Of a stretch of 64,000 bases of DNA, positions 22,648 to 47,884 are shown piece after piece. A program made the translations under genes and the position numbers. The stretch lies in the NCBI GenBank assembly GCA_963787125.1, contig CAWBBV010000001.1, forward strand, positions 640,001-704,000. The letters run 5' to 3'. The stretch is from an uncultured delta proteobacterium. Its GTDB lineage: Bacteria > Desulfobacterota > Desulfuromonadia > Geobacterales > DSM-12255. The notes under the pieces were generated by a model. That model did no database searches. It worked only from the letters and a program-made list of their open reading frames with translations, and was not told the origin of the DNA. The stretch's first letter is position 1, and each line of letters opens with the position of its first letter.

Positions 22648-22681
22648 ATCTGGTGACTCTTTAGTTGTAACGGGAGGTCTT

Positions 22682-23119: not shown

Positions 23120-23143
23120 AGAGTTATCTGAACTTTAGCAGGG

Positions 23144-23177
23144 TTGTAACAAGATTGTAACATCCGCCTGCTACCTT
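23144..23177 (+). promoter_or_regulatory. Pho box and -10 of pstS
   Basis: Direct repeat TTGTAACAAGA TTGTAACATCC, TACCTT at +17. Confidence 0.85.
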
Positions 23178-23210
23178 GAAATCAGCTGAAAAAGTCAATT
23201 CCAAGGAGAA

Positions 23211-24233: not shown

Positions 24234-24253
24234 AAGTTTTTTCAAATAAGGTC

Positions 24254-24290
24254 AGCCCGGACGGATGCAGCCATCGTCCGGGCTTTTTTT
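24254..24290 (+). terminator. Intra-operon hairpin + U tract between pstS and pstC
   Basis: AGCCCGGACG / CGTCCGGGCT followed by T run; would bias expression towards pstS. Confidence 0.8.
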
Positions 24291-24312
24291 CGCTAAATGG
24301 AGTGTTACAGCC

Positions 24313-26144: not shown

Positions 26145-26151
26145 GGAAAAA

Positions 26152-26910
26152 ATGAACGCAATTATCAAACTTGAAAATATGAGTGTCCATTTCGGGACTA
26201 ATCATGCGGTAAATGATGTTTCCCTTGATTTTATCGAGAACAGTGTCACAGCGATAATCGGTCCTTCAGGCTGTGGTAAATCGACCCTGCTGCGCTCCAT
26301 AAACCGGATGCATGATCTTGTCCCTTCTGCCAAGGTTAGCGGGCGGATCCTTTTCGATGGCCGGGATCTTTATGATCGCTCCGTCGATCCGGTAGCGGTG
26401 CGGCGCAAGATCGGCATGGTTTTTCAGAAACCTAATCCGTTTCCGGCCATGAATATTTATGATAATGTTGTGGCCGGGTACAAATTAAATAACCGTATGA
26501 AGCGCAGTGATGCCGACGAGATCGTCGAAACCTGCCTGAAGCGGGTTGCTCTTTGGGATGAAGTCAAGGACCGGCTTAAAACCAGCGCTGTCGATCTCTC
26601 CGGCGGCCAGCAGCAAAGGCTCTGTATCGCCAGAACCATTGCCGTCCAGCCGGAAGTGATCCTGATGGACGAGCCCTGCTCGGCCCTTGATCCGATTGCC
26701 ACCCTCAAGATTGAGGAGTTGGTCGAAGAGCTTAAAGAGCGCTTCACCATCATCATCGTGACGCACAACATGCAGCAGGCCGCCAGAGTTTCTGACGCCA
26801 CCGCTTTTATGTATATGGGTGAGCTTATCGAAAGCGGGCCGACCAAGAAGATTTTTACTACTCCGGAGAGGAAGCAGACTGAAGATTATATTACCGGGCG
26901 TTTTGGCTAA
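26152..26910 (+). CDS. pstB: Phosphate ABC transporter ATPase PstB
   Basis: [43 protein letters not shown]. Confidence 0.98.
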
Positions 26911-26919
26911 AAAGGCGGG

Positions 26920-26954
26920 AACAGTGAACTGTAAACTGTGAACTGTGAACTGTA
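26920..26954. repeat. Heptamer tandem repeat (AACTGTR) x5
   Basis: AACAGTG AACTGTA AACTGTG AACTGTG AACTGTA. Confidence 0.9.
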
Positions 26955-26997
26955 ACATCTATAAAAACATCGGTTGGGTATGGTTTTAGCTTTTACT

Positions 26998-27025
26998 GAT
27001 TCCGGATCCCGGATCCCGATTCACG
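26998..27025. repeat. Heptamer tandem repeat (GATYCCG) x3-4
   Basis: GATTCCG GATCCCG GATCCCG ATTCACG immediately before the phoU RBS. Confidence 0.75.
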
Positions 27026-27036
27026 AGGTTCAATAA

Positions 27037-27708
27037 ATGGAAAGAGAACATTTCAGCAAACAGTATGACGCCGAGTTGAAAAACATCAGGGAAAAGCTTC
27101 TGGAGATGGGGGGCAAGGTCGAGCTGATGATCAATGATGCCCTTAAGGCGCTTGTGGAGCGGGATTCCGCCCTGGCTGACAGGGTTATTATCTATGACCA
27201 CGAGATTAACCGGCTGGAGATGCATATCGATGAGAAGTGTCTTGAGGTGCTGGCGCTGCGGCAGCCAGCAGCCCGGGATCTCCGTTTCATTACCCTGGCG
27301 CTGAAGATCGTCACCGATCTTGAGCGGATTGGCGATCAGTGCCGCAATATCGGCAAACGTGTCAAGGAGTTGAACGAAGAGCCCCCCTTGAAACCTTATA
27401 TCGATCTGCCGAGAATGGCCACCTGGGCCGGTGTTATGGTGAAAGAGGCGCTGGATGCCTTTGTGCGCGGCGACGCTGACCTGGCTATCAAGGTTTGCCG
27501 GGATGACGACTTTGTCGATCAACTCAACGAGCAGATTCAGCGGGAACTCCTGACCTTCATGAGCGAAGACGCCAGCACCATCAGCCGTTCCCTGAAAATC
27601 ATCTATGTCTCTAAATGTCTGGAGCGTATTGCCGATCATGCCACCAACGTGGCGGAGATGGTTATTTTCATGGTCAAAGGGAAGGATATCAGGCATACAG
27701 AGGTGTAG
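27037..27708 (+). CDS. phoU: Phosphate signalling protein PhoU
   Basis: RQPAARDLR, TDLERIGD, LERIADHATNVAE. Confidence 0.98.
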   Translation: MEREHFSKQYDAELKNIREKLLEMGGKVELMINDALKALVERDSALADRVIIYDHEINRLEMHIDEKCLEVLALRQPAARDLRFITLALKIVTDLERIGDQCRNIGKRVKELNEEPPLKPYIDLPRMATWAGVMVKEALDAFVRGDADLAIKVCRDDDFVDQLNEQIQRELLTFMSEDASTISRSLKIIYVSKCLERIADHATNVAEMVIFMVKGKDIRHTEV

Positions 27709-32160: not shown

Positions 32161-33982
32161 GATAGTGTCAAAAGTTTCATGAAAAGCCGGGATATTGAAA
32201 TGGAAAGTACTCGAAAGTAAACGATGCCCTTCATCTGCATCTTTTCCGAGTCTGTCCAGACTGTGACTTCACTACTTTGTGGTTACTGGCTTGAATTTTG
32301 GGCAAGCCACTCTGTGACCAGGCACGTGAGATAGTTGGTCAGATTAAAACAACAATCAGTAAATTGATCTTTGAAGACGGGAAGTCAGGCAGCTAGCGAG
32401 AGGATCTTGGTCCATCTAGCCTGAATGGTCGGCAGTGCCTTCAACTCCTGCAAAGGCACCGGTGGTAGATATTTTAGCGACATGTGAGGCCTGAGGAAGT
32501 TGTAGTGGGTCACAAACAGCGTAGTTAAAGATACCGCACCGTTTGTGCTGTTGAATCCTGCTGCTGGCCTTACATGATACTTGAAGGTTCTGTTGAGCCG
32601 CTCAACGAGCTGCTTGAAGGATCTGTACTCTTCGGACTCGGCATCAAGGTTTTGGAGGCCAATAACCTTTTTGTGCTGAATCGTCTGGGAATCATCAGTC
32701 TGGGCATTGATGAAATGAATGCCAGCTGGATAAGAAGGGTTTCCGTCGCTGACAAGGGTTATTTGCTGATCGGCAGAAGCAGTCCTGATGGCTTCATTCA
32801 TAGCGATAATGGCAGGCTGAGTGCCCCTGTTATCGGCCACGTGATAGGCGGAGATTTTCAGGTTCTTTGCCGAGATAAAAAAGAAGACATAATGGTGCTT
32901 GCCCAGGATCTTGATGTAGGTCTCATCACCTGCAGAGATATTATCGATATGGCCTTTATGCTTGAGATTGAATCGGTGGCAGTGCCAGGCGGCGCCAGCG
33001 GCATAATTGAGAACTGTCTGATGAGAAACCTTGATACAGAAGACTTCGCGCAGGATTTGAGCAGTTTTTCTGGCCGGAACGGCGAATGAAACATAGAAAG
33101 TCAGAATCAGGCCAAGCACGTTTTCGCTGTTATGGATTCTCGCCAGTTCGACCGGCGGTTTGTCCGGAGAAGAGAGTTCCAACTCTTCCGGTTTGTAGTG
33201 ATATTCGCGGTACTGGTAGTTGATTTTGAACTGAGAACTTTTCTTTTTCATCAGCTCTTTCTCGGCTTTATTGAGCTTGGCAAGCGCCTGGATACGGTGA
33301 GGACAGTTATCATTTGGGCACTTGTGGATGGTCACTTCCTTTTGCGACTTCCACCTGAAGAGAGCCAGCCCGCAATGGGGACAGAAGAGCTTTGACTTTC
33401 TGTTGGTTCTGAAGCGCTGTTGGAGTTGGAAGAGTTGAGAGCAAACCTTGCAGAGAACTTGAGAGCGCTTCTTTCCGTCGTTGAAGTAGAGATAAGTATT
33501 TGGCGCTCCGCAGCAGGGACAGGTGACATGCACTGGAACCGGTGATGAACCCGCCCGGAGCTTGACCGGAGCAAGAGACTTTCCGTGAAGTGTTTCGTAC
33601 TCAATCAGGAGTTGCCGGTAGTCTTTTTGATCGAGGTCTTTTTTTTAAACTTTGGGGGCTCAGTCAGTGGCGGCTTGGGATCGACAATAAAGTTTCTGTA
33701 GTTCGGATGTTTCTCTTTGAAATCGTCCTTTGGCTTAACTTCAGGATTACGATTTTCGAGGACATCTGACAACCCGACGACGATCTGTTCAATCTCGGTC
33801 TTTGTAAACTTGGAGCAAATCCAGACAACAAACCGGGCAGTTTTGGATAGGTACGACATGAGCTAGCCCTCCATAACTGGCATTCTTAACCAGAATCACG
33901 GGGGGAGGCAAGACTTTGATTGGTAATGCATTGAAATTAGAACTGAAAAGCAAAAAGACATGTCAAGAAGTTTGACACAACG
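32161..33982 (-). mobile_element. Insertion sequence, DDE transposase of IS6/IS240-like type (about 1.82 kb)
   Basis: Imperfect TIRs (GATAGTGTCAAA / TTTGACACAACG); flanking duplication TTAAGGGG at 32153-32160 and 33983-33990 (a 10-bp reading GTTAAGGGGG also fits). Confidence 0.85.
32385..33859 (-). CDS. Transposase split over two frames (33605-33859 and 32385-33533), joinable by -1 shift at A8G
   Basis: Zn ribbons CPCC/CKVC/CPHC; catalytic GDETYIKI, VSDGNPSY, VERLNRTFK, HYNFLRPH. Confidence 0.85.
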
Positions 33983-34007
33983 TTAAGGGGGAAAAGGAGA
34001 AAATCAT

Positions 34008-34790
34008 ATGTTGACAAAGCTTAAGACTGACTATCGGCAGATGTTTGAAGTTGAAATGGCGGTATTTCTTGTCGTGCTGGCGATCCTTGCCTGCACAGTT
34101 GCCATTGCCAATGCGGCGGAAATTCGGGTTGGCGGCGCAGCTGAAGCCTGTAACGGCATGTTTGCCGTGATCAAAGAGCAGGTACGGGATGAAATCGGCA
34201 CCAGTCTGCTGGTAAGCCCGAACTCCTCGGCACAGGCGTTACTTGACCTCGACCGGGGAAACATTGACATTGCCACCACCGACGTCCCGCTGGATAGCCT
34301 CATATCTGACCTGGAGAAAACAGGCTATCTGATTGTCCCGGAAAGCTTCCAGGTGCAGGGGATCGGTACCAACAGAATCCTGGTTTACCTTAACAAGGAG
34401 ATCAAGGTGACGGCACTCTCCCAGGGGCAGTTAAGCGATATTTTTACCGGGAAAATCTCCAACTGGAAGCAGCTGGGTGGTGATAACCGGAAAATTGTTG
34501 TTGTCTGGGGGGATAATACGCCTGACCAGAACCGACTGTTTCGCTGGTACGTTATCGGCACCGGGCCGATTGCCAAAACAGCAGTCAGGGCAATGGATCA
34601 ACAGGATATAATTGAACGTGTCAGTAAAACACCGGGCGCAATCGGCATTGCCTCCTATGTATACGCCAGCGGTAGAACCCGCAATCCGAAAACCCCATTT
34701 GTTTCGGCCAAGGTAATTGCCATAACCAAGGGCGCTCCCAGTGGCGAAGTCCAAAAGCTGCTGGAAGTGGTGAAATCCTATGATTATTGA
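34008..34790 (+). CDS. PstS-like (PBP superfamily) substrate-binding protein, ligand uncertain
   Basis: Signal-like N-terminus; LSDIFTGKISNWKQLGG, VSKTPGAIG; phosphate-binding GS motifs degenerate. Confidence 0.8.
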   Translation: MLTKLKTDYRQMFEVEMAVFLVVLAILACTVAIANAAEIRVGGAAEACNGMFAVIKEQVRDEIGTSLLVSPNSSAQALLDLDRGNIDIATTDVPLDSLISDLEKTGYLIVPESFQVQGIGTNRILVYLNKEIKVTALSQGQLSDIFTGKISNWKQLGGDNRKIVVVWGDNTPDQNRLFRWYVIGTGPIAKTAVRAMDQQDIIERVSKTPGAIGIASYVYASGRTRNPKTPFVSAKVIAITKGAPSGEVQKLLEVVKSYDY

Positions 34791-34879
34791 GCGCGGTTAT
34801 TGTCGTAATAACTAGCTGAAAATTTGTTAGCAAAAGCATAAACTGAAACCCATGCAAACGGTTAGCAACTCAGACTTCA

Positions 34880-37450
34880 TTACATCCCAGCGCACTTTAC
34901 TCTTATCGCCTCAAAGTCCTTCCCTTTCGGCATGATGAAAAGGCATTTGCCGTTGCTCCGTTTTTCCCACAACTCGCCAAGTTTCCGTTTCTCATCATTC
35001 TCCGGCAAGATCCAGTCGCGGCTGTTTTTGTACTCAACCGCAAGGATTTTCCCGTTTTCAAGCTGGCAAAGAAAATCAGGATAAAAACGGTCACTGCCGG
35101 TTTGCAGTGAAAAGGACGTTTTCTTGCACTCGACGTTGCGGACCCAGAATTTTACCCCTTCAAGCTCCGTTGCCAGGAAGAGCGCACATTCGAATTCTTC
35201 CCCATCACCCTTCAGATTGCCAATCTGCGGGAAAAAGTGCTTGGGCAGCTCGGTAAAGCCGCAGTATATTGAGTCGTAAGCATAACGCCCGGCCTCAAAG
35301 ACAACCTGACTTCTGTCATTAACGGCAAATTCCTCGGGAGAGAGCAGCAGACATTGATGCACTTGCTGCATCGCCTGTCTTTTCCCCTCATTGATCTTTG
35401 TTTCCAAGGCGCTTCGCAGCCGGAACTTGGCATAAGCCAGCTCTTCCAGCGTAAAACCGCTCTGCGTCAGCCACTCAACACCCCTGTTCAAAAAGGCAGC
35501 TTTTTCGTCAGGCATAAGGTTTGCGTCATAGATATTTCCTTCCAGCCAGGAAACCAGCTGCACTTGATCCCAGCCGGAACGGTACTCGAACAGATAAGTT
35601 TCTGCCACACCCGGCGTAAAATTGATGAATTTCACCTTTTCTTTTTCCAGATACATTGTGCCGCCCTGGGGTGCCTGGTTTGCCTTGGTGAACGCTGACA
35701 GTTCGCTGGAATAGTCGAGCAGGCTCCATTCCCCTTGCAGCAGGTGGGTGGCTTCAAACGATTCCCATAGTTCCCCTTGGCGGAACTGCAACTGCGGCAC
35801 CTTGAACAGCTCGCCTTGTTCTGACGGTGTCTTTGGCGGTACCTTACGCGGTGAACGCAAGCGGGTTATGGCCTCCCGTACTGCCTGCTTTCCCTCCGGA
35901 GTCTGGAAAACCTCCTGCAAGGCTTTCACCTGGGGCTCGGTAAAAGAACCCTTCAGGGTGATGGAGCCGTTCTCCGGCGTGATCTCGATCTTTTTCAGCA
36001 GATTATCGGGAATATTCCCAGGCTCGGGCAGCTCCGGCGTGCTGTAGGTCAGGCTGGTCTGATGGCTGAAAAGGTCATCATCCAGTTCTTCATCCTGAAT
36101 ATTGATCAGCTCCTTTGTCTCCTGCCGCTCAAAACCGCTTCGCACCAAGCCATCCTTGAGACTCTCGACCGTGGCCGCAAAGTTGCTCGATGTCAAATAA
36201 GCATAGGCCATATTCAGGTCAGGGTGTTCATTGCGCTTTGCATAAGGAAGGCGCAGAATCCGCCCCAGCACCTGCTCTGCAGCCGTAGCCGAACTGGTGT
36301 TACGTAGCGAGCAGAGCACATAGGCAAAGGGGCAGTCCCACCCTTCACGTAACTTGTCCACAGTGATGATGAAACGGAACGGGCAATCCTCAGCTAGAAT
36401 ATTCTTTCCCGCTATCTCGTCCGTGGTGCCGGTGGCGATGGCGATTTCATGCGCCGGAATACTGAAGTCGTCCAGTAGCGCCTGCTTGACCCGTTCCGTC
36501 GTCAATGTTTCGTGGTCGGCGTCCTTGCGCTCCGCTTGCAACAGCATAATCGGCCTCAAGTAGTTGCCGCCCCCGGCCCGTTCAGCCTCTGCTGACACCT
36601 GCAACTTGTTCAGACGTCCAATCGCATCCCTCAGGGCGTCAAGCCAGTTGGGCCGCCGCACCAAAGTCAGTGGCATCTTGATCATATCTTCCGAATGCAG
36701 CACCGAGGCGGAGACACTGTAAAGCACGTTACTCGGCTGATAGGTGCGGTCCGGTGTCGCCGTCAGCTCCAGAATGGCGCATGGCTCAAAGCGGGCCAGG
36801 GTATCAAATGCCAGCAGAGTCCCTTGATTGTGGGCTTCATCGACGATGACAAACGGTTTGCGCAGTCGCAGCACATCTACCAGCGAACCGTTGCCGCGCA
36901 CGCTAGCGTCGCTGATCCCCTCGAAATGTTCCATCAGGCTGCCGTTCTGCTTATAGACGCTCAGGCGACCGGTCTCCTCCTGCTTGAATGCCTGCATGGT
37001 GGCGACAATGATCACATTGGAACCGTTCAGCAGATGCGGCGTCATCCGCAAGGCTTCCTCGATATCCAACACGGTCAACTCACCCAGCGCCGACGCCACC
37101 GACTGGCCGAGGATTGACGACTTGTCACGTAGAGCCTTCAAGGTCTGCTCGCGGATCGGTTCCGATGGCACCAGCCAGAGAGTCAGACTGCATGGGGAAT
37201 GCAGCAGACTGCGGTTCACCCGTTCGATAGCCATGCCTGCAACCAGAGTCTTGCCGCCACCAGTGGGGATGCGCAGGCAGACATACGGGACCGTTTCAAG
37301 ATTGCGCAAGGGCCGGTAGAAAAGCGCCATGCCCCGCCACTCCTTGGTGGTCTGGGCATAGCTTTCGCGGGGATAGCCGGTTTCGCGGCAACGTTTGAGG
37401 AACTTTTCAAACCATTCCAGCGCGTCAAACTGATATCTCTTCAGTATCAT
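34880..37450 (-). CDS. Type III restriction endonuclease Res subunit (SF2 helicase + PD-(D/E)xK nuclease)
   Basis: IPTGGGKT, VDEAH, LTAT, LREGWDCP, QVLGRILR, FYPDF...AVEYK. Confidence 0.9.
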   Translation of the reverse strand: MILKRYQFDALEWFEKFLKRCRETGYPRESYAQTTKEWRGMALFYRPLRNLETVPYVCLRIPTGGGKTLVAGMAIERVNRSLLHSPCSLTLWLVPSEPIREQTLKALRDKSSILGQSVASALGELTVLDIEEALRMTPHLLNGSNVIIVATMQAFKQEETGRLSVYKQNGSLMEHFEGISDASVRGNGSLVDVLRLRKPFVIVDEAHNQGTLLAFDTLARFEPCAILELTATPDRTYQPSNVLYSVSASVLHSEDMIKMPLTLVRRPNWLDALRDAIGRLNKLQVSAEAERAGGGNYLRPIMLLQAERKDADHETLTTERVKQALLDDFSIPAHEIAIATGTTDEIAGKNILAEDCPFRFIITVDKLREGWDCPFAYVLCSLRNTSSATAAEQVLGRILRLPYAKRNEHPDLNMAYAYLTSSNFAATVESLKDGLVRSGFERQETKELINIQDEELDDDLFSHQTSLTYSTPELPEPGNIPDNLLKKIEITPENGSITLKGSFTEPQVKALQEVFQTPEGKQAVREAITRLRSPRKVPPKTPSEQGELFKVPQLQFRQGELWESFEATHLLQGEWSLLDYSSELSAFTKANQAPQGGTMYLEKEKVKFINFTPGVAETYLFEYRSGWDQVQLVSWLEGNIYDANLMPDEKAAFLNRGVEWLTQSGFTLEELAYAKFRLRSALETKINEGKRQAMQQVHQCLLLSPEEFAVNDRSQVVFEAGRYAYDSIYCGFTELPKHFFPQIGNLKGDGEEFECALFLATELEGVKFWVRNVECKKTSFSLQTGSDRFYPDFLCQLENGKILAVEYKNSRDWILPENDEKRKLGELWEKRSNGKCLFIMPKGKDFEAIRVKCAGM

Positions 37451-39036
37451 GCAACCCCCACTTTCAGCTTGTATGGCAACTGCTTGAAGACAATCCCCTC
37501 GCGGCGCAGCCGCTCCTGATCAATGCGGCAAGCCGTGCCGTAGATGACCTTTGGCCCGGCGTGTCCGGGCAGCGCGGCCAAAATCATCGTGGTCAGCACA
37601 TTGCCCCCCTTTTGTGTCTTATCTTTGAGGATGCCGTTATAGAGGAGGTAGACCGCCGTGCCGTTGTGGATGCCGAGCAGCGGGCTATCCAAGGTGGCAG
37701 TGGCAGGCAGCGGTCCGCCGGTTTCGGTAAAATAGACATGCCGGGCGAGATCGGCAAATCGTACGGTGGAGCGGATGTTGCCCCGTTCGTCAAAGAGCGG
37801 TTCACCCAGTTCGCAGAAGCGGAAGCCGCCACCAAGAGCGGGAACTTTTTCGTAACCTTGAGATACCCGCAATAACCGTGTAGACGTAATGTTGCGGCAG
37901 ATGTTTTCGTCCATCTCAACTAGGATGAAGCGGCGGTTGCCACCGTCAGAGGCGTTCTGTGCCAGTACGGCGTGGCCGGTGGTGCCACTCCCGGCAAACG
38001 AATCAATAACAAGGGAATCCTTGTCAGTTGCAATCTGAAGTATGCGCTGAATCAATCGGGTAGGTTTGGGAGTATCGAAAACCTTGTCATCACCGCCCAA
38101 CAAATCTTTAATTTCCTGTTTTGCTTCTTGGCTATGACCAACCTCGCTATTTGCCCACCACGTCCATGGAGTAACTCCTGAAGACTCTTCAAGGAATGTC
38201 TTACGCCGAGGAACGCCATTACCGTCTTTTCCAAACCAAATACGATTATCCGCAATAAGTTCAAGAAAACCGCTCTCCACATTTTTCCAGCAATTGCCTG
38301 GTGGCGGAGCAACTTTTCTTCCTGAAGGTGTAACAATCTCGTACATTTGATTTGGCCTAAATCCTTGAGCTGCAAAATCAGTCGATACCCATGGGCCACG
38401 TGGGTCGTTGTCAGGGTTTTTAAACGTCGCACGCTGTTTTTCAGATTGTGGAATTTTATTCAAGTTCAAGTTTGTAATTGCTTTGCCATAGACAATTATA
38501 TGTTCATGTGCGTCGCTCAACATCAAACGTGCATCTGGTGAAGTTCTCTTCTGCCAAAGCACATTCGCAACAAAGTTATTCGCTCCGAAGATCTCATCCA
38601 ATAACATCCGCAAAAGATGCACCTCATTATCATCAATGCTGATAAAAATAGCTCCGTCATCCCGCAGAAACTCCCGCAGCAGCGCCAATCTTGGATACAT
38701 CATGCACAACCATTTGTCATGGCGCGACAGGTCTTCCGCTTCCTTCCCCACGGCTCTGCCCAGCCATTCGCGCATCTCGGGACTGTTGACGTTGTCGTTG
38801 TAGACCCAGCCCTCGTTGCCGGTGTTATATGGAGGATCGATATAGATGCACTTCACCTGCCCGGCGTAGTAGGGGAGCAATGCCTTGAGCGCCAGCAGAT
38901 TGTCTCCCTGCACCAGCAGGTTGCCGCTGCCTGGGTCGCCCACTGATAGCTCGGGGTTTTCCCTGAGCAGGTGAAACGGTACTTCGCGGTGATGGTTGAC
39001 AACGGCTTTTTTGCCTATCCAGTCGAGTTTGGGCAT
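37447..39036 (-). CDS. Type III RM Mod subunit (beta-class N6-adenine methyltransferase)
   Basis: IYIDPPYNTG, FDTPKP, DSFAGSGTTG; 4-bp overlap with res. Confidence 0.93.
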   Translation of the reverse strand: MPKLDWIGKKAVVNHHREVPFHLLRENPELSVGDPGSGNLLVQGDNLLALKALLPYYAGQVKCIYIDPPYNTGNEGWVYNDNVNSPEMREWLGRAVGKEAEDLSRHDKWLCMMYPRLALLREFLRDDGAIFISIDDNEVHLLRMLLDEIFGANNFVANVLWQKRTSPDARLMLSDAHEHIIVYGKAITNLNLNKIPQSEKQRATFKNPDNDPRGPWVSTDFAAQGFRPNQMYEIVTPSGRKVAPPPGNCWKNVESGFLELIADNRIWFGKDGNGVPRRKTFLEESSGVTPWTWWANSEVGHSQEAKQEIKDLLGGDDKVFDTPKPTRLIQRILQIATDKDSLVIDSFAGSGTTGHAVLAQNASDGGNRRFILVEMDENICRNITSTRLLRVSQGYEKVPALGGGFRFCELGEPLFDERGNIRSTVRFADLARHVYFTETGGPLPATATLDSPLLGIHNGTAVYLLYNGILKDKTQKGGNVLTTMILAALPGHAGPKVIYGTACRIDQERLRREGIVFKQLPYKLKVGVA

Positions 39037-39050
39037 GATCTCCTCATATA

Positions 39051-39079
39051 CAAAAGGCCGCCCATGCAGGAACGGCCTT
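39051..39079 (-). terminator. Hairpin between HicA-like gene and mod
   Basis: AAGGCCG / CGGCCTT stem with short T run on minus strand. Confidence 0.55.
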
Positions 39080-39111
39080 AGCTTTCAGTTACGTAGTTAT
39101 CCGAACAGCAG

Positions 39112-39396
39112 CTATAGAAGTTCTTGAGCGGCCAGCAGTTTTTCGTACCCCTGGCGGTCAAGTGGGCAATCGATCAACTCGATGAACTTCTGTTTGTTCA
39201 GCTTGCACTGCTTTGCCATTCTGCTCAGTAGTTCATCGGTAATAGTTTTCATCTTCGGGGTGTGGCTGGTTTTGGTGAAGGCCATTGTTTTCTTGCCGGT
39301 AGTTGCCCGGTAGCAAAAAAAATGGTGGTCGCCTTCCTGTAGTTCAAATCCCTTGGCGACTAGGCTCGTTTCTATCTGCCGCTTGTCACGCTGCAC
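39112..39396 (-). CDS. HicA-like small basic toxin candidate
   Basis: LVAKGF...GDHHFF...SHT...ITDELLSRMAKQCKL pattern resembles the HicA dsRBD-like fold. Confidence 0.6.
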   Translation of the reverse strand: MQRDKRQIETSLVAKGFELQEGDHHFFCYRATTGKKTMAFTKTSHTPKMKTITDELLSRMAKQCKLNKQKFIELIDCPLDRQGYEKLLAAQELL

Positions 39397-40450
39397 CGGC
39401 TACCTCCCGCAGTGCGGCAAGCAGGCTTTGCTTGACGGCAAGCGCCGCTCCGGTTAACTCCTCATCGGCAGCCATGGCGTAGGTGTCCCATAAAAAAGCT
39501 ATCTGCTCTCTAAGCTCCAGATCAAGTTGATCGCGGGTATAGGCGTAGACGTCAATTCCCAGTTCCGGCATTTCAAGACAGTATAACTGCTGGGTCTCGT
39601 CAAGCTCCGGCGTCAACTCAAGCGGTTTGCTGAACTCAAATGTTCTGCCGGCATATTCGATTGTCTGGAGGTAAAAGGTGGAGAAGTCAACCTCTTCGAT
39701 ACTCTCCACATTGATGATCTTTTTCGGCAGGTCGTTTTCATCCATGATGACTTCCCCCGTGACCTGAATCAATTCACGGGGGCGTTCCAGCAACATCTCT
39801 TCGAGAGCTTCGCTGTAGGTGCATTCAAGCTCTCTGCTATTGGCCGGGTAGACGATTTTTATCTTTCGTTCATCAAACTGAATCTCCGACAAACGACCGG
39901 TGACGGTGCGCACCTGTCGTTCAGTATCAGCGGCAGTGGAAAGGCACGCTTTGCCACGCTCGTGCAGCGTGTCCAGCGAAACATGGAACGACCCGGTTGG
40001 TTGCGAAATCCCGGCCTTGATACCGCTCCCCATGCTGGGAGTCATGGCCCTTATTGCCTCGATAAAGCGGTCACGACGAGCACTGTCAGGTATTTTAGCG
40101 GTAAGCCCGGAAAGTTCGCCGCATGAGATAAAGGTGCAGCAATCCGAGAAGAGCTTGCCGACAGATTCGACATCGTTGATTGCAAACAAGGTAACGGTAG
40201 GGTCGCCGATCTCCACCGGCACGATATAACTTCCTGGTTTAGGGAGTGAACAGAGGAGAGGATATTTTGCTTCGACGTTTTTGCTTAGCCGTTCGCGGAG
40301 CCGCACGGAGATGTTTTCATGCTGCATGGCAAGCAGATGAACCGCTCGCTGCATAGCGCCAAGAACTTGAGTCAAGGTAGCAACGGGCAGCATCTGGCCG
40401 TCGGCGAATCGCCCCTCAAACTTTATTTCAAACTGCCGCTTGTCACTCAT
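39386..40450 (-). CDS. 354-aa protein, possible OB-fold middle and HicB-like C-terminal domain
   Basis: C-terminal YCLEMPELGIDVYAYTRDQLDLELREQIAFLW resembles HicB; overlaps downstream HicA-like gene by 11 bp. Confidence 0.55.
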   Translation of the reverse strand: MSDKRQFEIKFEGRFADGQMLPVATLTQVLGAMQRAVHLLAMQHENISVRLRERLSKNVEAKYPLLCSLPKPGSYIVPVEIGDPTVTLFAINDVESVGKLFSDCCTFISCGELSGLTAKIPDSARRDRFIEAIRAMTPSMGSGIKAGISQPTGSFHVSLDTLHERGKACLSTAADTERQVRTVTGRLSEIQFDERKIKIVYPANSRELECTYSEALEEMLLERPRELIQVTGEVIMDENDLPKKIINVESIEEVDFSTFYLQTIEYAGRTFEFSKPLELTPELDETQQLYCLEMPELGIDVYAYTRDQLDLELREQIAFLWDTYAMAADEELTGAALAVKQSLLAALREVAGAA

Positions 40451-40741: not shown

Positions 40742-42277
40742 TCAGCTGATTACCGGTTCCAGAACCAGCTTCAGCTCAAACGCTTCCTTGAAAAGATCGC
40801 TTTTGGAGGTAGCGCCATAGATCTCGACGGCAAGATCGCCATTGCCTTGCAGGCGCAGTACGAGGCGGGAAGGGGAGAAGAGCGGTTCGACAATGCTGAC
40901 CATGCCGGTGCGGCTCCGGTCAAGACCGTCTGCCAGTCTCAAAATGCCGCCTAGCCTTGAGACAAGCAGGCGATCAGCTACGCTTAGCCGCATGAACTGC
41001 TCGTGCTTTTTTTTAGGGAGTGACTTGCGATGGTACCGGGCAACATTGGCGATCAATTCCCGCTCGCGAGGGGTGAAGCCGAAAAGGTCGGCGTGGCGAA
41101 TCAGGTGGTAGGAGTGTTTGTGATGACTGGAGTAGTTGATAAAATAGCCGACGTCATGGAGGATTGCCGCCGCTTCAAGAATCCGACCTTCCCGTTCCCC
41201 CAGGCTGTACGGCCTGGCAAGGGCTTTAAAGATCTGCTGCGCCAGATGCGCTACCTGGAGCGCATGGTTGGCGTCGAAGTGACATGATGCGGCAAAACCG
41301 AGTACGGACTCGCGCCAGGAGCGTGGCACATCCATAGCCGCAAGCATGCCGTGCTTCCTTAGTCCGCGCAGTATCAGCCCTTCCCGTATCCCCCGCTCGT
41401 TAACCTTGAGAAGATTAGTCTGGCAGAACTCCAGCAGCTCATCGATGACCATGACTCCGGCTACAATGATATCGGCACGATCCGGACTTAAGCCCGGAAT
41501 GGCGCGGAGCTCTTTGAGCGTTTTTCGCAGCAGCATTGCCAACAGGTGGACTACGTCACTGCGCAGGATTTCATAGCCATGGGCCGAGCCGTAACCCTCT
41601 TTGCGCCCGGCCAGAAGCATGGCAGCGATGGAGGTTACTGTGCCCCCTGAGCCGATGACCGCATTGATTGTCGCCATGCCGTCCGGAAAGGTCTGCTTGA
41701 GGGTTTTTCTGATATGGCGGCGCAGGCGGTTGTGAGCTTCTGCTGAAGATAGATCAACATTGAGAAAGGTTTCCGACAGATATACCGCCCCGAGCTCCAG
41801 GGAAAAAATCTCTTCAACATGTTGCCCGACGGTGGTGACCAATTCCAGACTGCCGCCGCCGATATCTATCAGCAGGTACCGGGCATCCTCAATGTCGAAG
41901 TTATTGAAGGCGCTTAAGGCGGCAAGTTCGGCTTCTTCCTCACCCTCAATGACACTGACTGCAATGCCGGTCTGTTCCTTGACCGCAGCGATAAACGCCT
42001 TGCCATTGGTTGCCTTGCGCACGGCACTGGTGGCAACAGCCTCAATCTCCCGGACACCATAGCCGTCAATGATCTTTTTCTGGCGGATAAGTGCCGTGAT
42101 CGCCCGGGCGCAGGCTTCAAGCGAGAGCGCTCCGGTTTTGTGCAGCCCTTCGCCAAGGCGGACTGTGGCTTTTTCATCATCAAGAACCCGGAACTTCCCG
42201 GAACTTTCAGCTTCAACGACAATGCTGCGAATGGAGTTGGTGCCGATATCAATGGCGGCCAGACGATTATTTGTCAC
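40742..42277 (-). CDS. ppx: Exopolyphosphatase Ppx/GppA with HD domain
   Basis: AAIDIGTNSIR, VATSAVR, IDIGGGSLE, GIREG, ILHDVGY. Confidence 0.93.
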   Translation of the reverse strand: MTNNRLAAIDIGTNSIRSIVVEAESSGKFRVLDDEKATVRLGEGLHKTGALSLEACARAITALIRQKKIIDGYGVREIEAVATSAVRKATNGKAFIAAVKEQTGIAVSVIEGEEEAELAALSAFNNFDIEDARYLLIDIGGGSLELVTTVGQHVEEIFSLELGAVYLSETFLNVDLSSAEAHNRLRRHIRKTLKQTFPDGMATINAVIGSGGTVTSIAAMLLAGRKEGYGSAHGYEILRSDVVHLLAMLLRKTLKELRAIPGLSPDRADIIVAGVMVIDELLEFCQTNLLKVNERGIREGLILRGLRKHGMLAAMDVPRSWRESVLGFAASCHFDANHALQVAHLAQQIFKALARPYSLGEREGRILEAAAILHDVGYFINYSSHHKHSYHLIRHADLFGFTPRERELIANVARYHRKSLPKKKHEQFMRLSVADRLLVSRLGGILRLADGLDRSRTGMVSIVEPLFSPSRLVLRLQGNGDLAVEIYGATSKSDLFKEAFELKLVLEPVIS

Positions 42278-43161
42278 AGGAGACCCCTTACACGCGTGCC
42301 CATTTCAGTCAGGGGCTCTCTAGCCTGGAGTTGCAGGAACTGAGTGAAAAGCTGATGGCGGCGGTCAGAGATGGTATTTTTTAGCAGCGGCTCAGCCGAA
42401 GGCTCGCTTGTCATCCTCCCGGTCATGCTGCAGAAAACATCCAGATCATGCAGCTGCCCGAGAACTTCCTGGTAAGCCTTGATTGAATTGTAAACATCCT
42501 TGTAATTATCTGCAGCCAGGGGCGCCAGAAATTCCAGCCGGTATCTGAAACGCTTGACGGCAATCCGCAGCCGGTGCTGGGCAGTGATATTCTCCTCCAT
42601 TAGAGCCTCGGGGTAGATCTCCAGCAGCGGCTTCTCCCGTTCCGTAACGGCTTCAAGAAGATACGCGCCGACCGGCTGGAAAAGATTGCTGGCGTTCGGG
42701 TTGAAAATGCGCGGATTGCTGCAGATTTCATCGATCCTGCCAAGGAGTGAGCCGGGATCAATTTTCTTCAGTTCACGCCTAAGTTTGCGCTCTTCCGTCA
42801 CCCTTTCCGCCTGTAAAGCCCTGACTATAGAGGTGATAGCCGCAGTTGAGCTCTCAGTGGATGTTTCCGACAAGGTGTTGAAATAGAGGAGCGCTTCATC
42901 AGTGTTGCGGATTGTTCCGAGCATGTCAGTCAGCCTCTTGAGCTCTTTGCGGAGTCTGGTGAGCTGGCGTTTCCTGAAGCAGTGGGCAAAGATAGCGATC
43001 CCTTCCCGCAGACGGCGCGAGGAGACCCGCAGGTCATGGAGGGCTTCAGGTTCGAAAGCCTCTCTGCTAAGGGTTAGCTGGAGAAAAAAATCGTCGCTGC
43101 GGTCCAGCAAAAAAGCCCGGGCGGCAAGCCAGGTTTGAGTGTCGGCAGTCACGTTTCTCAT
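42274..43161 (-). CDS. CHAD-domain (polyphosphate-binding) protein
   Basis: LHDLRVSSRRLR, HRLRIAVKRFRY, QEVLGQLHDLDV. Confidence 0.93.
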   Translation of the reverse strand: MRNVTADTQTWLAARAFLLDRSDDFFLQLTLSREAFEPEALHDLRVSSRRLREGIAIFAHCFRKRQLTRLRKELKRLTDMLGTIRNTDEALLYFNTLSETSTESSTAAITSIVRALQAERVTEERKLRRELKKIDPGSLLGRIDEICSNPRIFNPNASNLFQPVGAYLLEAVTEREKPLLEIYPEALMEENITAQHRLRIAVKRFRYRLEFLAPLAADNYKDVYNSIKAYQEVLGQLHDLDVFCSMTGRMTSEPSAEPLLKNTISDRRHQLFTQFLQLQAREPLTEMGTRVRGLL

Positions 43162-43553
43162 GAAGTCTTCTTCTCGGCTGAAAGGCTTTTATCGTTGCCT
43201 GCTGCCGCCCTGGTCTTTTTCCCGGCAGGTTTAGGCGCCCGTTCCGGATTGTCGGCTTCAATAGCGCTGTCGAGGAGATCATGCAACAGAACGTCGATTT
43301 TTTTCAGATCCTTGACACGTCCCTTGGCAGGTTTAATTTTGAGGCCATGAATTTCTTTTACCCAGGTGCGCGCAATAGTTTTAAGTCTTACCGGCGGCAT
43401 TTTCAGCAGATAATCGAGCAGTGCCTCTACCTCCCCCTCTTTGCAGAGGATGAAGCCCTCGGCCGTCTCGCGTACTGACGCCCGCAGAGACTTAAGTTCG
43501 GTGACGAGTTCGTGTTGCAGTAGTAGATGGCGGGATTCTTTCTTTTTTTCCAT
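43158..43553 (-). CDS. Hypothetical basic protein with Lys/Ala-rich tail
   Basis: In-operon ORF (2-bp gap upstream, 4-bp overlap downstream); LKIKPAKGRVKDLKKI. Confidence 0.8.
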   Translation of the reverse strand: MEKKKESRHLLLQHELVTELKSLRASVRETAEGFILCKEGEVEALLDYLLKMPPVRLKTIARTWVKEIHGLKIKPAKGRVKDLKKIDVLLHDLLDSAIEADNPERAPKPAGKKTRAAAGNDKSLSAEKKTS

Positions 43554-43555: not shown

Positions 43556-44236
43556 CTATATCCCCAGGCTGTCAGCAACCCGGCTGCTGATTTCTCGCGC
43601 CACGGCCTTTACTGACAGGTTGCCATTAACCATTGCAAAGTCGTACTCGGACTCCATCAGGGCAAACTCTTTCTGGATGAGACGTTGGTAGCGGATGAAG
43701 CTGTCAAAACTGTCGCGGGAAAATCCCAGGTCCATCCCTGATTCCCAGTAGTCCAGAGTTGCATTTTTACGCAGATTTCGCTCGACTAACTGAGTCGGGC
43801 TGACCTTGACATAAACCACCAGATCAGGAACCAGAGCAATGCCGTAGAGAGAGCGGACCCAGTCCCGGTCGGCGCCCCGGACGATATCCCTGGCCATGAG
43901 AGTATAGATATATCGATCTGCCAGCACAATAAAACCGGCTTTTAGTGCCGGAATGATCCGGTTCTCCAGTTGATCGGCAAAATCGGTTGCATAGAAAAGG
44001 CTGCGGGTTATCTCCCCCAGCACATTCCCCTGCTTGGCTTCTTTCAGCTCATCGGAAACCAGTGTCGAGCGCCGCAGTCCCACGTTTACCGTGGCATGCC
44101 CCTTGTTTTCCAGGGCATCACGCAGAAGCTCCATCTGAGTGGAGCGTCCGGAGCCGTCGGCCCCTTCGATGACAATCAGGCGACCGGTCAACTCTTCCGG
44201 ATTAATTCCGGGGATACCATCTCCGTAAAATTGCAT
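43556..44236 (-). CDS. Thymidylate-kinase-like protein, P-loop Lys replaced by Arg
   Basis: IEGADGSGRSTQ, TDFADQLE, LADRYIYT, DYWESGMDLG. Confidence 0.88.
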   Translation of the reverse strand: MQFYGDGIPGINPEELTGRLIVIEGADGSGRSTQMELLRDALENKGHATVNVGLRRSTLVSDELKEAKQGNVLGEITRSLFYATDFADQLENRIIPALKAGFIVLADRYIYTLMARDIVRGADRDWVRSLYGIALVPDLVVYVKVSPTQLVERNLRKNATLDYWESGMDLGFSRDSFDSFIRYQRLIQKEFALMESEYDFAMVNGNLSVKAVAREISSRVADSLGI

Positions 44237-44242
44237 AAACCC

Positions 44243-44932
44243 TTATCCTATTGTCCTTGAACGATAACGCGGCAGATCAATCTTTGTGGCAATGATATCT
44301 CTCACCGTCTGCTGTTGTGTTTCTATGGGAGACGAACCATCTACCTCGATAAAACTGAAGCGATCGCGCAGCGAAAGATACTCTTCATAAATCTTCCCCT
44401 GAAAAAGCCGGAAACTTTCATACGGATCGTTGGATAGACCAAGATCCATTCCTGCTTCATGGTATTTTAGCTGCGGTCTGCCGCTCAGAATTCTGCCGAG
44501 CGCAATCTTGAGCGGGGTATTGAAGAAAAGAGTGATATCCGGGTGGCAGGCAAAACCGTAAAGATTCTGGAGCCAGGATTGGGAACAACCCCGAACAGTG
44601 TCACGGGCAAAGGCGGTATAGATGTAACGGTCACAGAGCACCAGATAACCCGCTTTCAAAAGCGGCAGGATCTGCCGCTCGTAGCGATCGGCAAAATCGG
44701 TGCAGTGAATCAGGCTGAAGGTTGTCGGCGTAAGGAGTTGGCGTTTCTTCCCCTTGCTGGTAGCCTTTTTGATCAGCAGGGATGAATTCCACTCGGTGAA
44801 AAAAACCTTTAGCCCCTTCATCTCCAGCCAGCGTTTGAGGAGATAGAGCTGGGTAGATTTTCCTGAACCATCCAGTCCTTCGACAGCGATGAGTCTGCCG
44901 GGGTAGCGCTCAAGTTCACGGTGCAGCATCAT
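44243..44932 (-). CDS. Thymidylate-kinase-like protein, canonical P-loop
   Basis: VEGLDGSGKSTQ, TDFADRYE, LCDRYIYT, KYHEAGMDLG. Confidence 0.88.
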   Translation of the reverse strand: MMLHRELERYPGRLIAVEGLDGSGKSTQLYLLKRWLEMKGLKVFFTEWNSSLLIKKATSKGKKRQLLTPTTFSLIHCTDFADRYERQILPLLKAGYLVLCDRYIYTAFARDTVRGCSQSWLQNLYGFACHPDITLFFNTPLKIALGRILSGRPQLKYHEAGMDLGLSNDPYESFRLFQGKIYEEYLSLRDRFSFIEVDGSSPIETQQQTVRDIIATKIDLPRYRSRTIG

Positions 44933-45453
44933 GCATGTACCCTCTGAAGTGCTTTTCGTGCTTTTTTCAAGCCTGTGCGCAGCTCCTTCAGTCCGGCTTC
45001 GGCAAGCCCTTCAAGTTGCTCCTCGGCCTTTTTAACGACTTTACCGGATCGCTTGAGCTTTTTGCCGGTGTTTTCTTCCACACTCTCCAGCGCCTCGATA
45101 AAGCGAACAAGAGTTTCGGTGAGCTTTTTACCGGGCTTGCCGGCAAGCTCTTCACTGAAGCGGTCTTTTGCCGCTCTGGTCAACTCCTGCACTGACAAGC
45201 GTAACCCCTGGAGTGAATCTTTAAGCGCGGCCGCCCTGAGATCACGCTCGTTATTGTTGCTACCCGCGAAGCTGGCAGCCTGTTCGAGGATGTCGGGGAT
45301 AGTTTTCGGGTTGAGTCCCTTGATTTTTCTGAGACCACCGTCGCCAAGCTTGACGATCTTTTTAAAAGTGTCATGCCCGGCTTCAAGCAGGCGCAGCGCC
45401 AGTACCTCACCAATGCCCCTGATCTGCTGCAGCTCTTTGGCTGTTAAACTCAT
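44929..45453 (-). CDS. Helix-hairpin-helix protein with Lys-rich helical C-terminus
   Basis: LQQIRGIGEVLA and LRKIKGL HhH motifs. Confidence 0.8.
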   Translation of the reverse strand: MSLTAKELQQIRGIGEVLALRLLEAGHDTFKKIVKLGDGGLRKIKGLNPKTIPDILEQAASFAGSNNNERDLRAAALKDSLQGLRLSVQELTRAAKDRFSEELAGKPGKKLTETLVRFIEALESVEENTGKKLKRSGKVVKKAEEQLEGLAEAGLKELRTGLKKARKALQRVHA

Positions 45454-46001
45454 GGTGTAAACTCCTGTAAGTAGCTATGATTTTTGCCAAATAAACGTTC
45501 CAAGGCCTCAGACTGTTTACGGATCGCCTTGCCACTCCCGCTGATCAAGCTGGACAACTCACCGGAGAGTCCTGATTTATTGATCGAGATATCAATAGAC
45601 ACTACGCATCCTTTGGAGAGGTTGCAGGGTGGGGTTAGCCGGAGGAGGGTTCTGACAACCTCTCCAAGTTCCGGCTCGTGACCGACAATAACTATTTCGC
45701 TCGCTGAGCTTCTTGTTCGCAGAAGATTGCCGAGTGTTGCCATGTCGGGTCCGTCAGCCAGGCCAGGAAAAATTTGGAGTTCACCATTGAATCTGATTGT
45801 TTCGGCGAGAATTTCAGCTGTCTGCACAGCCCTGATCAGGGGACTGGAAATTATGAAGTCGGGATCGATCGCCATTTTTTTCAGGCAGGCCGCAACCTGT
45901 CGGAATCTTTTCCGTCCGCGGCAGGTGAGATTACGCTGTTCATCGAGCAGATCAGCCGAACGCTCAATGGCTTGAGCATGGCGGATAAAATGTACCATCA
46001 T
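45450..46001 (-). CDS. sixA: SixA-like histidine phosphatase
   Basis: FIRHAQA, RNLT, SSPLIRAVQTA, VGHEP; start at ATG 46001/45998 (TTG 46022 possible). Confidence 0.88.
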   Translation of the reverse strand: MMVHFIRHAQAIERSADLLDEQRNLTCRGRKRFRQVAACLKKMAIDPDFIISSPLIRAVQTAEILAETIRFNGELQIFPGLADGPDMATLGNLLRTRSSASEIVIVGHEPELGEVVRTLLRLTPPCNLSKGCVVSIDISINKSGLSGELSSLISGSGKAIRKQSEALERLFGKNHSYLQEFTP

Positions 46002-46093
46002 AAATTGATCCAATTGTGACAATTTTCGTGTAAACTATCCTATAAGCAGGCGTTGCTGCAATGCAGAAAATGGCATTAATGCCAATGTTTACG

Positions 46094-46117
46094 AAGTGTC
46101 ACAAAATTGTAACATGA
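46094..46117. promoter_or_regulatory. Pho-box-like repeat between divergent sixA operon and DUF1450-like gene
   Basis: Plus: GTGTCACAAAA TTGTAACATGA; minus: ATGTTACAATT TTGTGACACTT; no clear -10 at +17 in either direction. Confidence 0.6.
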
Positions 46118-46177
46118 CTTTAATGATTCGCAAGAGACTACATAGATTTAACAGCTGAATTGCCAGGAGAGATGACC

Positions 46178-46396
46178 ATGAAGATACGTTTCTGTGAACA
46201 GAACAAAGGTGTTGGGAAGGTGTTCAAGAAGCTGAAAGAGAACCATCCGGATTGGAACATAAAGCGCAAGGATTGTATTAAGAAGTGCGGGCCATGCGGG
46301 AAAATGCCCATTGCCGTGGTAGATGGCGAAACCGTCAAAGCTGATGACGGCGAAGAACTTTACTCCAAAATTGTCGATCTGCTGAAAAAATCATGA
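46178..46396 (+). CDS. Small Cys-containing DUF1450/YuzB-like protein
   Basis: IRFCxxN...CIKKCGPC...PIAVVDGE; AGGAG RBS. Confidence 0.75.
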   Translation: MKIRFCEQNKGVGKVFKKLKENHPDWNIKRKDCIKKCGPCGKMPIAVVDGETVKADDGEELYSKIVDLLKKS

Positions 46397-46408: not shown

Positions 46409-47884
46409 CTAAAGCGCCTTCTCGATGGCCTTGCAGAGGGTTTTCATGACCTTGATCCGGGCGTAGTATTTGTCATTGGCCTCAACCAGCGTCCAGGGCG
46501 CAATTTCAGTGCTCGTCCGGTCGATCATGTCACAGATTGCTATTTCGTACTCTTCCCACTTTTCCCGGTTGCGCCAGTCCTCGGCAGTTATTTTGAACCG
46601 TTTGAAACCGGTGCTCTCCCGCTCTTCAAAGCGCTTTAGCTGCTCATTCTTGCTGATGGTCAACCAGTACTTGACTATCACGGTCTTGTTGCGAACCAGC
46701 TGCTCTTCAAAGTCGTTGATCTCACCATAAGCACGCATCCAGTCGGCCTGCGAGCAGAAACCTTCGATGCGTTCAACCAGAACCCGCCCATACCAGGAAC
46801 GATCAAAGATGGCGAATTTCCCTTGTCTCGGGAGGTGTCGCCAGAATCGCCAGAGATATGGCTGCGCCCGCTCGTCTTCGGTCGGAGCTGCCACAGGAAT
46901 TATCCGGTACTGGCGCGCATCAAGGGCTGAGGTGACCCGGCGAATACTCCCCCCTTTGCCGGCGGCATCATTCCCTTCAAAGAGCGCAACAACCGACAAA
47001 TTCCGGAAATTATCGTGGCGGGTAAGTAGAGCGAGTTTGCGCTGATATTCAGCCAATTCATCCTCGTACTCTTTCTTGGAAATGCTTTTAGTCAGGTCAA
47101 TAGCGTGAATCAAGAGAAGATTGTCTATTGCCGGAATCAGTGGCGGCAGGGTCACTGATTGGTATTTCTTTACAGATGCGTCAAGTCGCTGCCTGAGAGC
47201 AGAGAGTACCGCTTTTCCCACGGTCAGGCTGCGATAGTTGGCATCCTCCCCTTCGACAATCGCCCAAGGAGCTTCTCCCGTACTTGTCTGGCGGAGGGCG
47301 TGCTCGGAGCTTCTCCGATAGCGGTCATACAGCTTGAAATCGGCCCAGTCTCTTTTAGTTACCCGCCAGCGGGTATCCTTGTCCTTTTCCAGACTCTTCA
47401 AGCGCTTGCGCTGTCTATCTGCTGACAGATGAAACCAGAACTTGAGTATCAGGGCCCCCTCATCGGCGAGCATTTTTTCAAAACGAATAACCCTTTCCAT
47501 GGACTGGTCAAGTTCGGAGTTTTTGGTCTTGCCGGTAACATGATCGATGATCGGTGCCGAGTACCAGGAGCCAAAAAAGATGCCGATCTTTCCCTTCGGT
47601 GGTAAAGCCCGCCAAAAACGCCACATGTAAGGACGCTCCAGCTCTTCATCGGTAGGGGTGTCAAGGGCGTTTGTCTGGATATGGCGGGGGTCCATCCATT
47701 CATTGAGGATGTTGACCGTTTCTCCTTTGCCGGCGCCATCGACTCCGCCAATGATGATAATTACCGGGAAATCAGCGACAAGCAGGTCGAGTTGGGCATT
47801 GAGCAGTGCTTCGCGCAACTCAGGCACCTCCTGCCGGTAGCGTTCCTTGTCAATTTTGTGACCCAGTTCAGCCGATTCAAACAT
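46409..47884 (-). CDS. pap: Two-domain PPK2, polyphosphate:AMP phosphotransferase type
   Basis: MFESAELGH start, GVDGAGKG and EGNDAAGKGG, FDRSWYGRVLVER. Confidence 0.92.
   Translation of the reverse strand: MFESAELGHKIDKERYRQEVPELREALLNAQLDLLVADFPVIIIIGGVDGAGKGETVNILNEWMDPRHIQTNALDTPTDEELERPYMWRFWRALPPKGKIGIFFGSWYSAPIIDHVTGKTKNSELDQSMERVIRFEKMLADEGALILKFWFHLSADRQRKRLKSLEKDKDTRWRVTKRDWADFKLYDRYRRSSEHALRQTSTGEAPWAIVEGEDANYRSLTVGKAVLSALRQRLDASVKKYQSVTLPPLIPAIDNLLLIHAIDLTKSISKKEYEDELAEYQRKLALLTRHDNFRNLSVVALFEGNDAAGKGGSIRRVTSALDARQYRIIPVAAPTEDERAQPYLWRFWRHLPRQGKFAIFDRSWYGRVLVERIEGFCSQADWMRAYGEINDFEEQLVRNKTVIVKYWLTISKNEQLKRFEERESTGFKRFKITAEDWRNREKWEEYEIAICDMIDRTSTEIAPWTLVEANDKYYARIKVMKTLCKAIEKAL

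Follow-up and report, generated by a model that had tools for sequence, protein, structure and literature searches.

Genes A and B, an adjacent pair in the genome of an uncultured deltaproteobacterium of the order Geobacterales, belong to the polyphosphate kinase 3 (PPK3) family, A to the lineage of its c subunits (cPPK3) and B to that of its r subunits (rPPK3). By analogy with the enzyme characterized from Sulfolobus, the pair likely constitutes a two-subunit polyphosphate (polyP) kinase, with catalysis predicted for A and the part of an activator predicted for B, and this kinase likely serves as the lineage's substitute for PPK1. The probability that this reading is correct is put at roughly 0.8.

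A ppx-adjacent, two-subunit PPK of Sulfolobus, which the sequence-only reading of this DNA had mentioned, does exist in the literature (PMC12995831; bioRxiv 10.1101/2024.08.28.610084). According to the accessible text of the first report, Saci_2019 (cPPK3) is a reversible polyP kinase that is activated ~6-fold by the inactive Saci_2020 (rPPK3), with which it forms an alpha2beta2 complex (PMC12995831). In vitro, the enzyme favours ATP regeneration ~50-fold, with a synthesis rate of 0.22–0.25 U/mg, a reverse activity of 12.4 U/mg, and a KM for polyP of 0.036 mM (PMC12995831). The same text assigns the archaeal members to a branch made up mainly of bacterial sequences, foresees operons in bacteria in which PPK3 is accompanied by PPX, SixA and CHAD, and names STK_15430 as a cPPK3 homologue (PMC12995831). 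The literature searched yielded no assay of any bacterial PPK3 and nothing on PPK3 in Geobacter, and the listed rows of Data S1 (to row 31,788, in a table covering 47,545 genomes) include none for Geobacter or Thermodesulfobacteriota (PMC12995831).

The Gene Pair and Its Host Genome

Both genes lie on the minus strand of the window, i.e., the entire 64,000-nucleotide stretch of DNA that was analysed. Gene A (44243–44932) encodes a cPPK3-type subunit of 229 aa with a pI of 9.4, and gene B (43556–44236) encodes its rPPK3-lineage partner of 226 aa with a pI of 5.1. They had been described as two adjacent, paralogous P-loop kinases, and the description is borne out by a 38% identity across 213 aa (E = 2e-52). 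The motifs of A are GLDGSGKST, TDFADR, CDRYIYT and YHEAGMDLG, with Lys25 in the P-loop, while those of B are GADGSGRST, TDFADQ, ADRYIYT and YWESGMDLG, with Arg31 in the P-loop and an intact DRY. The shared TDFAD and DRYIYT can be read directly in both translations. The motif reported as (Y/W)xExGMDLG is likewise present in both, but its first residue is Y in each protein, such that YxExGMDLG is the correct form. A also possesses DRY, together with EWNSS at the position where thymidylate kinase (Tmk) has its EP motif, and a basic helix at residues 52–65 with a net charge of +6; the equivalent helix of B has a net charge of −1.

The host genome is 99.96% complete. A separate canonical tmk, the search for which had been proposed as a check, adjoins holB on another contig (C19) and scores 183 against TIGR00041. 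There is also a fourth, degenerate Tmk-like gene (contig C1:457521–458069), which lacks a DRX motif and whose P-loop has decayed, adjoining a biotin-carboxylase-like gene, and weaker Tmk-like matches recur in many of the relatives. Close homologues of the pair that carry names are from Geobacteraceae, cultured members of which possess both genes. No relatives of A were found among viral contigs.

Assignment to the PPK3 Family

The best sequence match in the PDB is STK_15430 for both proteins, with E = 3e-58 for A (entry 5h70; 2.5e-12 for the best other Tmk) and E = 7e-42 for B. A Foldseek search with the predicted model of A (pLDDT 92.7) likewise returned 5h70 as its top match (E = 2.8e-21, TM 0.84, rmsd 1.9), as compared to 1.3e-11 for the best other Tmk. 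Phylogeny against true Tmks and the archaeal pairs had been suggested as a further check, and it agreed: a quick maximum-likelihood (ML) tree was built from 110 rows selected for the purpose (16 Tmk, some of them on long branches, and 47 each of c and r), in which the c and r sequences were set apart from the 16 Tmks with an SH-aLRT of 99, and B grouped with all r subunits, the eight from Sulfolobales included, in a clade with an SH-aLRT of 98. The c group by itself was weakly supported (71). A profile built strictly from Sulfolobales c sequences scored A at 220.6 bits and B at 163.9, and one built from Sulfolobales r sequences scored B at 146.6 bits and A at 87.2. In pairwise BLAST, B was nearer to Sulfolobales c (35–40%) than to Sulfolobales r (32–38%).

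Several of the characters given for PPK3 in the accessible text of PMC12995831 can be recognized here. Paralogous c and r subunits are encoded together, in a neighbourhood of the polyP genes PPX, SixA and CHAD; they form a clade apart from canonical dTMP kinases (in the quick tree); dTMP-binding residues are lost, as judged on the EP motif; and a basic cleft occurs in c only, if the net charge of helix 52–65 is accepted as a proxy.

A and B could still be redundant or specialized dTMP or deoxynucleotide kinases, as they are annotated, but this is highly improbable. The annotation follows from Pfam PF02223, from database entries named "dTMP kinase", and from the PDB titles of STK_15430. Against it, A and B score 81.9 and 77.5, respectively, under the TIGR00041 cut-off of 83.25, and both lie outside the Tmk clade. 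The EP motif is absent from each, with TEWNSS in A and VGLRRS in B in place of the REPGG of the host's Tmk on C19, and the LLYAAARAQH and TVAYQG segments that lie downstream in that Tmk are replaced in both as well. A true tmk resides elsewhere in the host genome, and a separate canonical tmk occurs in 29 of 29 pair-carrying relatives. Finally, Saci_2019/2020 produced no dTDP, according to the accessible text (PMC12995831), and the assay described for STK_15430 in the available part of the preprint followed ADP only (10.1101/2024.08.28.610084). The earlier inference that A and B are not true dTMP kinases is supported; they fall in the c and r lineages of PPK3.

Residue Pattern of the r Subunit

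The division into c and r was examined in an alignment of 77 c and 74 r sequences from loci with flanking DNA, omitting three ORFs of two frameshifted or duplicated loci and 40 loci that lacked flanks. Since the c set was picked by motif, its H-x-TDF-x-DR positions are circular, whereas the r set was not motif-picked. The contrast between GSGKST and GSGRST, proposed from this single pair as a catalytic/regulatory divide, holds across the family: this P-loop position is occupied by Lys in 75 of 77 c, with gaps in the other two, and by Arg in all 74 r. This Lys-to-Arg change is the near-universal mark of r; others found family-wide are EWNSS-to-GLxRS, His-to-Tyr, Arg-to-Gln, and loss of the basic helix, where the mean net charge of residues 52–65 is +3.8 in the 77 c versus −1.2 in the 74 r. 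A second set, independent of the first, comprised 150 representatives at 50% identity; counting only domains classified with a margin >30 bits, it gave Lys in 82 of 83 c and Arg in 34 of the 40 r having a residue at that position.

A different picture emerges for the DRX motif, the Arg of which persists in 73 of 74 r (Metallosphaera being the sole exception) and in 46 of 46 r of the independent set. Sulfolobales r subunits read DGY in eight of eight cases, i.e., the DRX Arg is lost, and their P-loop residue is Arg in four and Lys in four. Two of the Lys type begin, by eye, as the Saci_2020 primer reads and are close stand-ins for the tested protein. In the accessible text, the inactivity of rPPK3 is ascribed to loss of the DRX Arg and of the basic cleft (PMC12995831). 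Because the DRX Arg is retained family-wide but lost in Sulfolobales r, which also sit on a long stem of 2.76 changes per site in the quick ML tree, the tested Sulfolobus r subunit is the outlier within the family, and the explanation by DRX loss (PMC12995831) does not fit most of the family. B itself has DRY in place of the replaced DRX Arg of the Sulfolobus-type inactive rPPK3 (Saci_2020/STK_15420); on this alignment, it is filed in the r lineage and not as a DRX-dead type. Since B differs in this respect and is nearer to Sulfolobales c in BLAST, the designation "inactive regulatory subunit" may not transfer to it.

Could both subunits then be catalytically competent? B would in that case be a second active kinase, acting on another nucleotide acceptor or priming short polyP, and the Sulfolobus partner a degenerate offshoot. 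The retained DRX Arg and the very long Sulfolobales r stem both favour such an arrangement, as do the P-loop of r, which is near invariant as G-x-D-G-S-G-R-S-T, and the B orthologues, which are 78–90% identical across the order and thus about as conserved as A. On the other side, every r of the alignment has Arg where c has the P-loop Lys, a substitution that usually cripples catalysis but spares binding; r has other residues in place of c's basic helix, His76 and Arg83; and the r half's P-loop is often decayed in c–r fusion proteins. On balance, a second active kinase is considered unlikely. Because the basic helix is missing and Arg replaces the P-loop Lys, B is probably not a polyP kinase and would not bind polyP as A does. 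The intact DRX and invariant P-loop nevertheless suggest that B still binds a nucleotide or phosphate ligand at a site retained by selection.

Operon Structure and Neighbouring Genes

The seven genes sixA-HhH-A-B-hyp-CHAD-ppx are separated by −4, −4, 6, 2, −4 and −4 bases, which agrees with the tightly coupled operon that had been read from the sequence, and the gene labels are backed by Pfam and NCBIfam. All are on the minus strand. The first gene encodes a SixA phosphohistidine phosphatase (45450–46022; TIGR00249 above cut-off), the true start of which is probably the ATG at 46001, given an alignment of the upstream regions of relatives. It is followed by a gene for a basic helix-hairpin-helix (HhH) protein with an HHH_5 domain, a Lys-rich helical tail and a pI of 9.9 (44929–45453). 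This gene occurs in 25 of the 30 loci of the order, with three of the misses at contig ends, and in 0 of 79 loci outside it; among the loci examined, the HhH protein is thus an accessory gene confined to this order.

Downstream of B lies a gene for a basic hypothetical protein of 131 aa (43158–43553) that is kept directly after B in 29 of 30 loci of the order. Pfam, NCBIfam and atlas searches returned no family for it, and its own profile drifted, such that the labels it gave outside this order were disregarded. As a guess from their charge, the HhH and 131-aa proteins may bind polyP or DNA. The last two genes encode a CHAD-domain protein (42274–43161; PF05235, E = 3e-42), the family of which binds polyP, and a long-form Ppx/GppA exopolyphosphatase with a C-terminal HD-like domain (40742–42277; Pfam/NCBIfam). 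PPX and CHAD were each found in 18 of 20 relative regions.

The pair had also been placed next to a PPK2. A two-domain PPK2 of the polyP:AMP phosphotransferase type (46409–47884, minus; TIGR03708 at 761 bits, cut-off 548) does neighbour the operon but is located outside of its tightly coupled part, ending 386 bp from the longest sixA ORF with a divergent, opposite-strand ORF for a small DUF1450 protein (46172–46396, plus; Pfam) in between. Adjacency is also variable, as PPK2 fell inside the fetched region in just 5 of 20 relative loci. PPK2 was rejected as an operon member on these three grounds.

A Pho-Box-Like Repeat Upstream of sixA

A direct repeat with an 11-bp period (46097–46114, no strand assigned) lies ~95 bp upstream of the sixA ATG. 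It resembles a Pho box. The search pattern was derived from this site itself, and the window contains only two sites that fit it, the second (23145–23162) being directly upstream of pstS; 0.14 matches were expected by chance. When ≤1 mismatch was allowed, 12 of 16 relatives had the pattern upstream of sixA, the remaining 4 of the 20 being impossible to position. Shuffled sequences gave an expectation of 0.9, and among 400 background promoters 14 carried it. In its strict form, the pattern turned up close to the start of the operon in no more than 3 of 20 relatives, and 9 of its 15 sites genome-wide are inside ORFs. A sigma-70 promoter scan was at chance, with 5 found versus 5.5 expected, and the literature search found no usable paper on the Pho box of Geobacter. 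It is also possible that the repeat acts on the divergent DUF1450 gene, or that another OmpR-family regulator recognizes it.

Genes for PhoB-like and PhoR-like proteins (best matches, under NCBIfam cut-offs), pstSCAB and phoU occupy 19341–27708 on the plus strand, 13–21 kb from ppx. The DNA that separates these genes from the polyP operon (32385–40450) holds an IS, a type III restriction-modification pair and two unassigned ORFs. A 94-aa and a 354-aa ORF (39112–40450, minus) have no Pfam match at E 1e-5 and, by eye, resemble a HicA/HicB-type pair.

Distribution of the Pair and Near-Exclusion with PPK1

Among the 151 genomes of the order, 30 carry the A–B pair; its two genes adjoin each other in every case, and the carriers fall in two of five families. 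Two relatives (G039 and G124) carry two complete copies of the operon each. When GTDB was scanned with a motif, 120 loci were returned of ~1700 estimated in species genomes, from hosts that included Verrucomicrobiota, Nitrososphaerota, Thermoplasmatota, Chloroflexota and others. Of the 80 loci with flanks, 79 hold a PPK3-like gene, with both subunits in 74 of these 79 and with PPX, CHAD, SixA or a PPK within 4 kb in 54.

The sequence-only reading noted that the window has no PPK1. No PPK1 match was indeed found there, but as a statement about the genome the claim was rejected, since one intact copy is located on contig C6. The host carries PPK1, three PPK2s (one in the window and two elsewhere; subtypes TIGR03707, TIGR03708 and TIGR03709) and PPK3 among contigs C6 (45497–50785) and C14 and the window. 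PPK3 thus accounts for just one part of its complement of polyP kinases.

In this respect, the host is one of only six genomes having both PPK1 and PPK3. PPK1 is present in 109 of 151 genomes of the order versus 5 of 29 pair-carrying relatives, and none of 5 same-genus pair carriers gave a PPK1 match. With the host included, the counts are 6 of 30 carriers versus 103 of 121 non-carriers, and within the two pair-bearing families they are 5 of 29 versus 40 of 55; kin are not independent in either comparison, and carrier and PPK1 counts were joined on the assumption that they derive from the same sample of 151 genomes, as their matching handles indicate. Eighteen of the 151 genomes possess neither PPK1 nor the pair. 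PPK2, for its part, co-exists with the pair in 26 of 29 carriers (one being a fragment at a contig end). Taken together, exclusion of PPK1 and coexistence with PPK2 mean that PPK3 likely supplies polyP synthesis, the role of PPK1.

Fusions involving these domains occur naturally. Metagenomic proteins combine c and r in one chain, or c or c–r with a Ppx-type HD domain (P0121, P0174, P0261; P0123, P0128, P0138, P0259), with assembly errors being possible. Lone cPPK3-type domains are also embedded in large proteins, with the architectures MFS-cPPK3-APH/DUF2252 and SPX-cPPK3-APH/DUF2252 or as inorganic-pyrophosphatase-cPPK3 polyvalent proteins (P0183, P0209, P0222, P0223, P0226, P0235, P0241, P0258; P0181, P0184, P0224), which the accessible text of PMC12995831 does not describe.

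It has also been considered whether the pair acts on some other phosphate-related substrate, such as a small phospho-metabolite or a protein partner (e.g., SixA or HhH), with polyP turnover as a side activity. Such a role would accommodate c-type domains fused to MFS/APH/DUF2252, SPX or inorganic pyrophosphatase domains with no r domain in the same chain, as well as the low synthesis rate of the Sulfolobus enzyme (PMC12995831). It is given very little credence in view of that enzyme's reverse activity and KM for polyP (PMC12995831), the constant linkage to PPX and CHAD, and the exclusion of PPK1.

Proposed Mechanism and Implications

If the pair functions as a PPK3, as the analogy with the Sulfolobus enzyme suggests, A would use its P-loop to bind ATP or ADP and a basic cleft (helix 52–65) to bind polyP, and would move phosphate reversibly between ATP/ADP and polyP. 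B would oligomerize with A, in an alpha2beta2 complex if the Sulfolobus arrangement applies, and raise its activity; probably no polyP kinase itself, it likely retains a site for a nucleotide or phosphate ligand. The operon would be turned on by PhoB under phosphate limitation, the CHAD protein would sit on the polyP granule, and Ppx would release Pi from that same granule, with PPK3 taking the synthetic role of PPK1. The predicted activity rests by analogy on one archaeal enzyme, close relatives of which are ~47–50% identical to A, and the ~50-fold preference of that enzyme for ATP regeneration fits uneasily with a PPK1-like, synthetic role (PMC12995831). A tentative possibility is that the bacterial form, rather than the tested Sulfolobus one, is the typical PPK3. 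The partner's ligand site, with its invariant P-loop Arg and intact DRX, would then act as a switch that responds to nucleotides or phosphate, or as a further active site, and would tilt the enzyme in favour of polyP synthesis. If that were true, Geobacter-type bacteria, along with many other lineages, would have PPK1 replaced by a non-homologous enzyme under the control of PhoB.

Several consequences follow for annotation and experiment. Thousands of "dTMP kinase" annotations are probably polyP kinases. Many of the ~1700 stretches estimated by the GTDB scan belong to Verrucomicrobiota, Nitrososphaerota, Thermoplasmatota and Geobacter-type bacteria, so that genomes scored as PPK1-negative may still make polyP. 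The misfit of the published explanation for rPPK3 inactivity, as given in the accessible text (PMC12995831), raises a precise question as to the role of the r subunit, and cultured Geobacteraceae with the pair offer a mesophilic system for in vivo work on the family.

Comparison with Known Systems

A–B is a putative bacterial copy of an already published system, SaPPK3 (Saci_2019/Saci_2020 of S. acidocaldarius), from a family that was described in 2024–2026 and whose bacterial branch had been predicted (PMC12995831). Going by the accessible text of that report, the two have in common tandem dTMPK-fold paralogues of the same clade with c before r, an operon with sixA, ppx and CHAD, a separate canonical tmk, loss of the EP motif, and a basic patch on c only (PMC12995831). 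They differ in that the host here is bacterial, that B combines an Arg in its P-loop with a DRX motif that still has its own, that the operon is enlarged by the genes for the HhH protein and the basic hypothetical protein, and that a Pho-box-like site lies upstream; gene order is also distinct, being sixA-HhH-c-r-hyp-CHAD-ppx here and sixA-ppx-c-r-CHAD in SaPPK3 (PMC12995831). Whereas most PPK3 genomes are stated to lack both PPK1 and PPK2 (PMC12995831), the present host encodes PPK1 as well as three PPK2s, and PPK2 is common among its pair-carrying relatives too.

STK_15430 of Sulfurisphaera tokodaii (PDB 2plr, 4nzy, 4rzx, 5h70), to which A is 49–50% identical with a TM of 0.84, differs in having been deposited as a dTMP kinase and solved without an r partner. 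Canonical thymidylate kinase (TIGR00041), represented by the host's own tmk beside holB, shares the fold, P-loop and DRX motif, but is only 27% identical, has the EP motif, occupies a separate branch of the tree, and is encoded with holB and not with polyP genes. Two-domain class II PPK2 is comparable in being a polyP kinase with a P-loop, one half of which is active while the other is inactive and oligomerizes, an analogy drawn in the accessible text of PMC12995831; it differs in belonging to another family, consisting of a single chain, and using AMP. What is new in the present system is the residue pattern of the r subunit, the exclusion of PPK1 in this order, and the Pho-like box.
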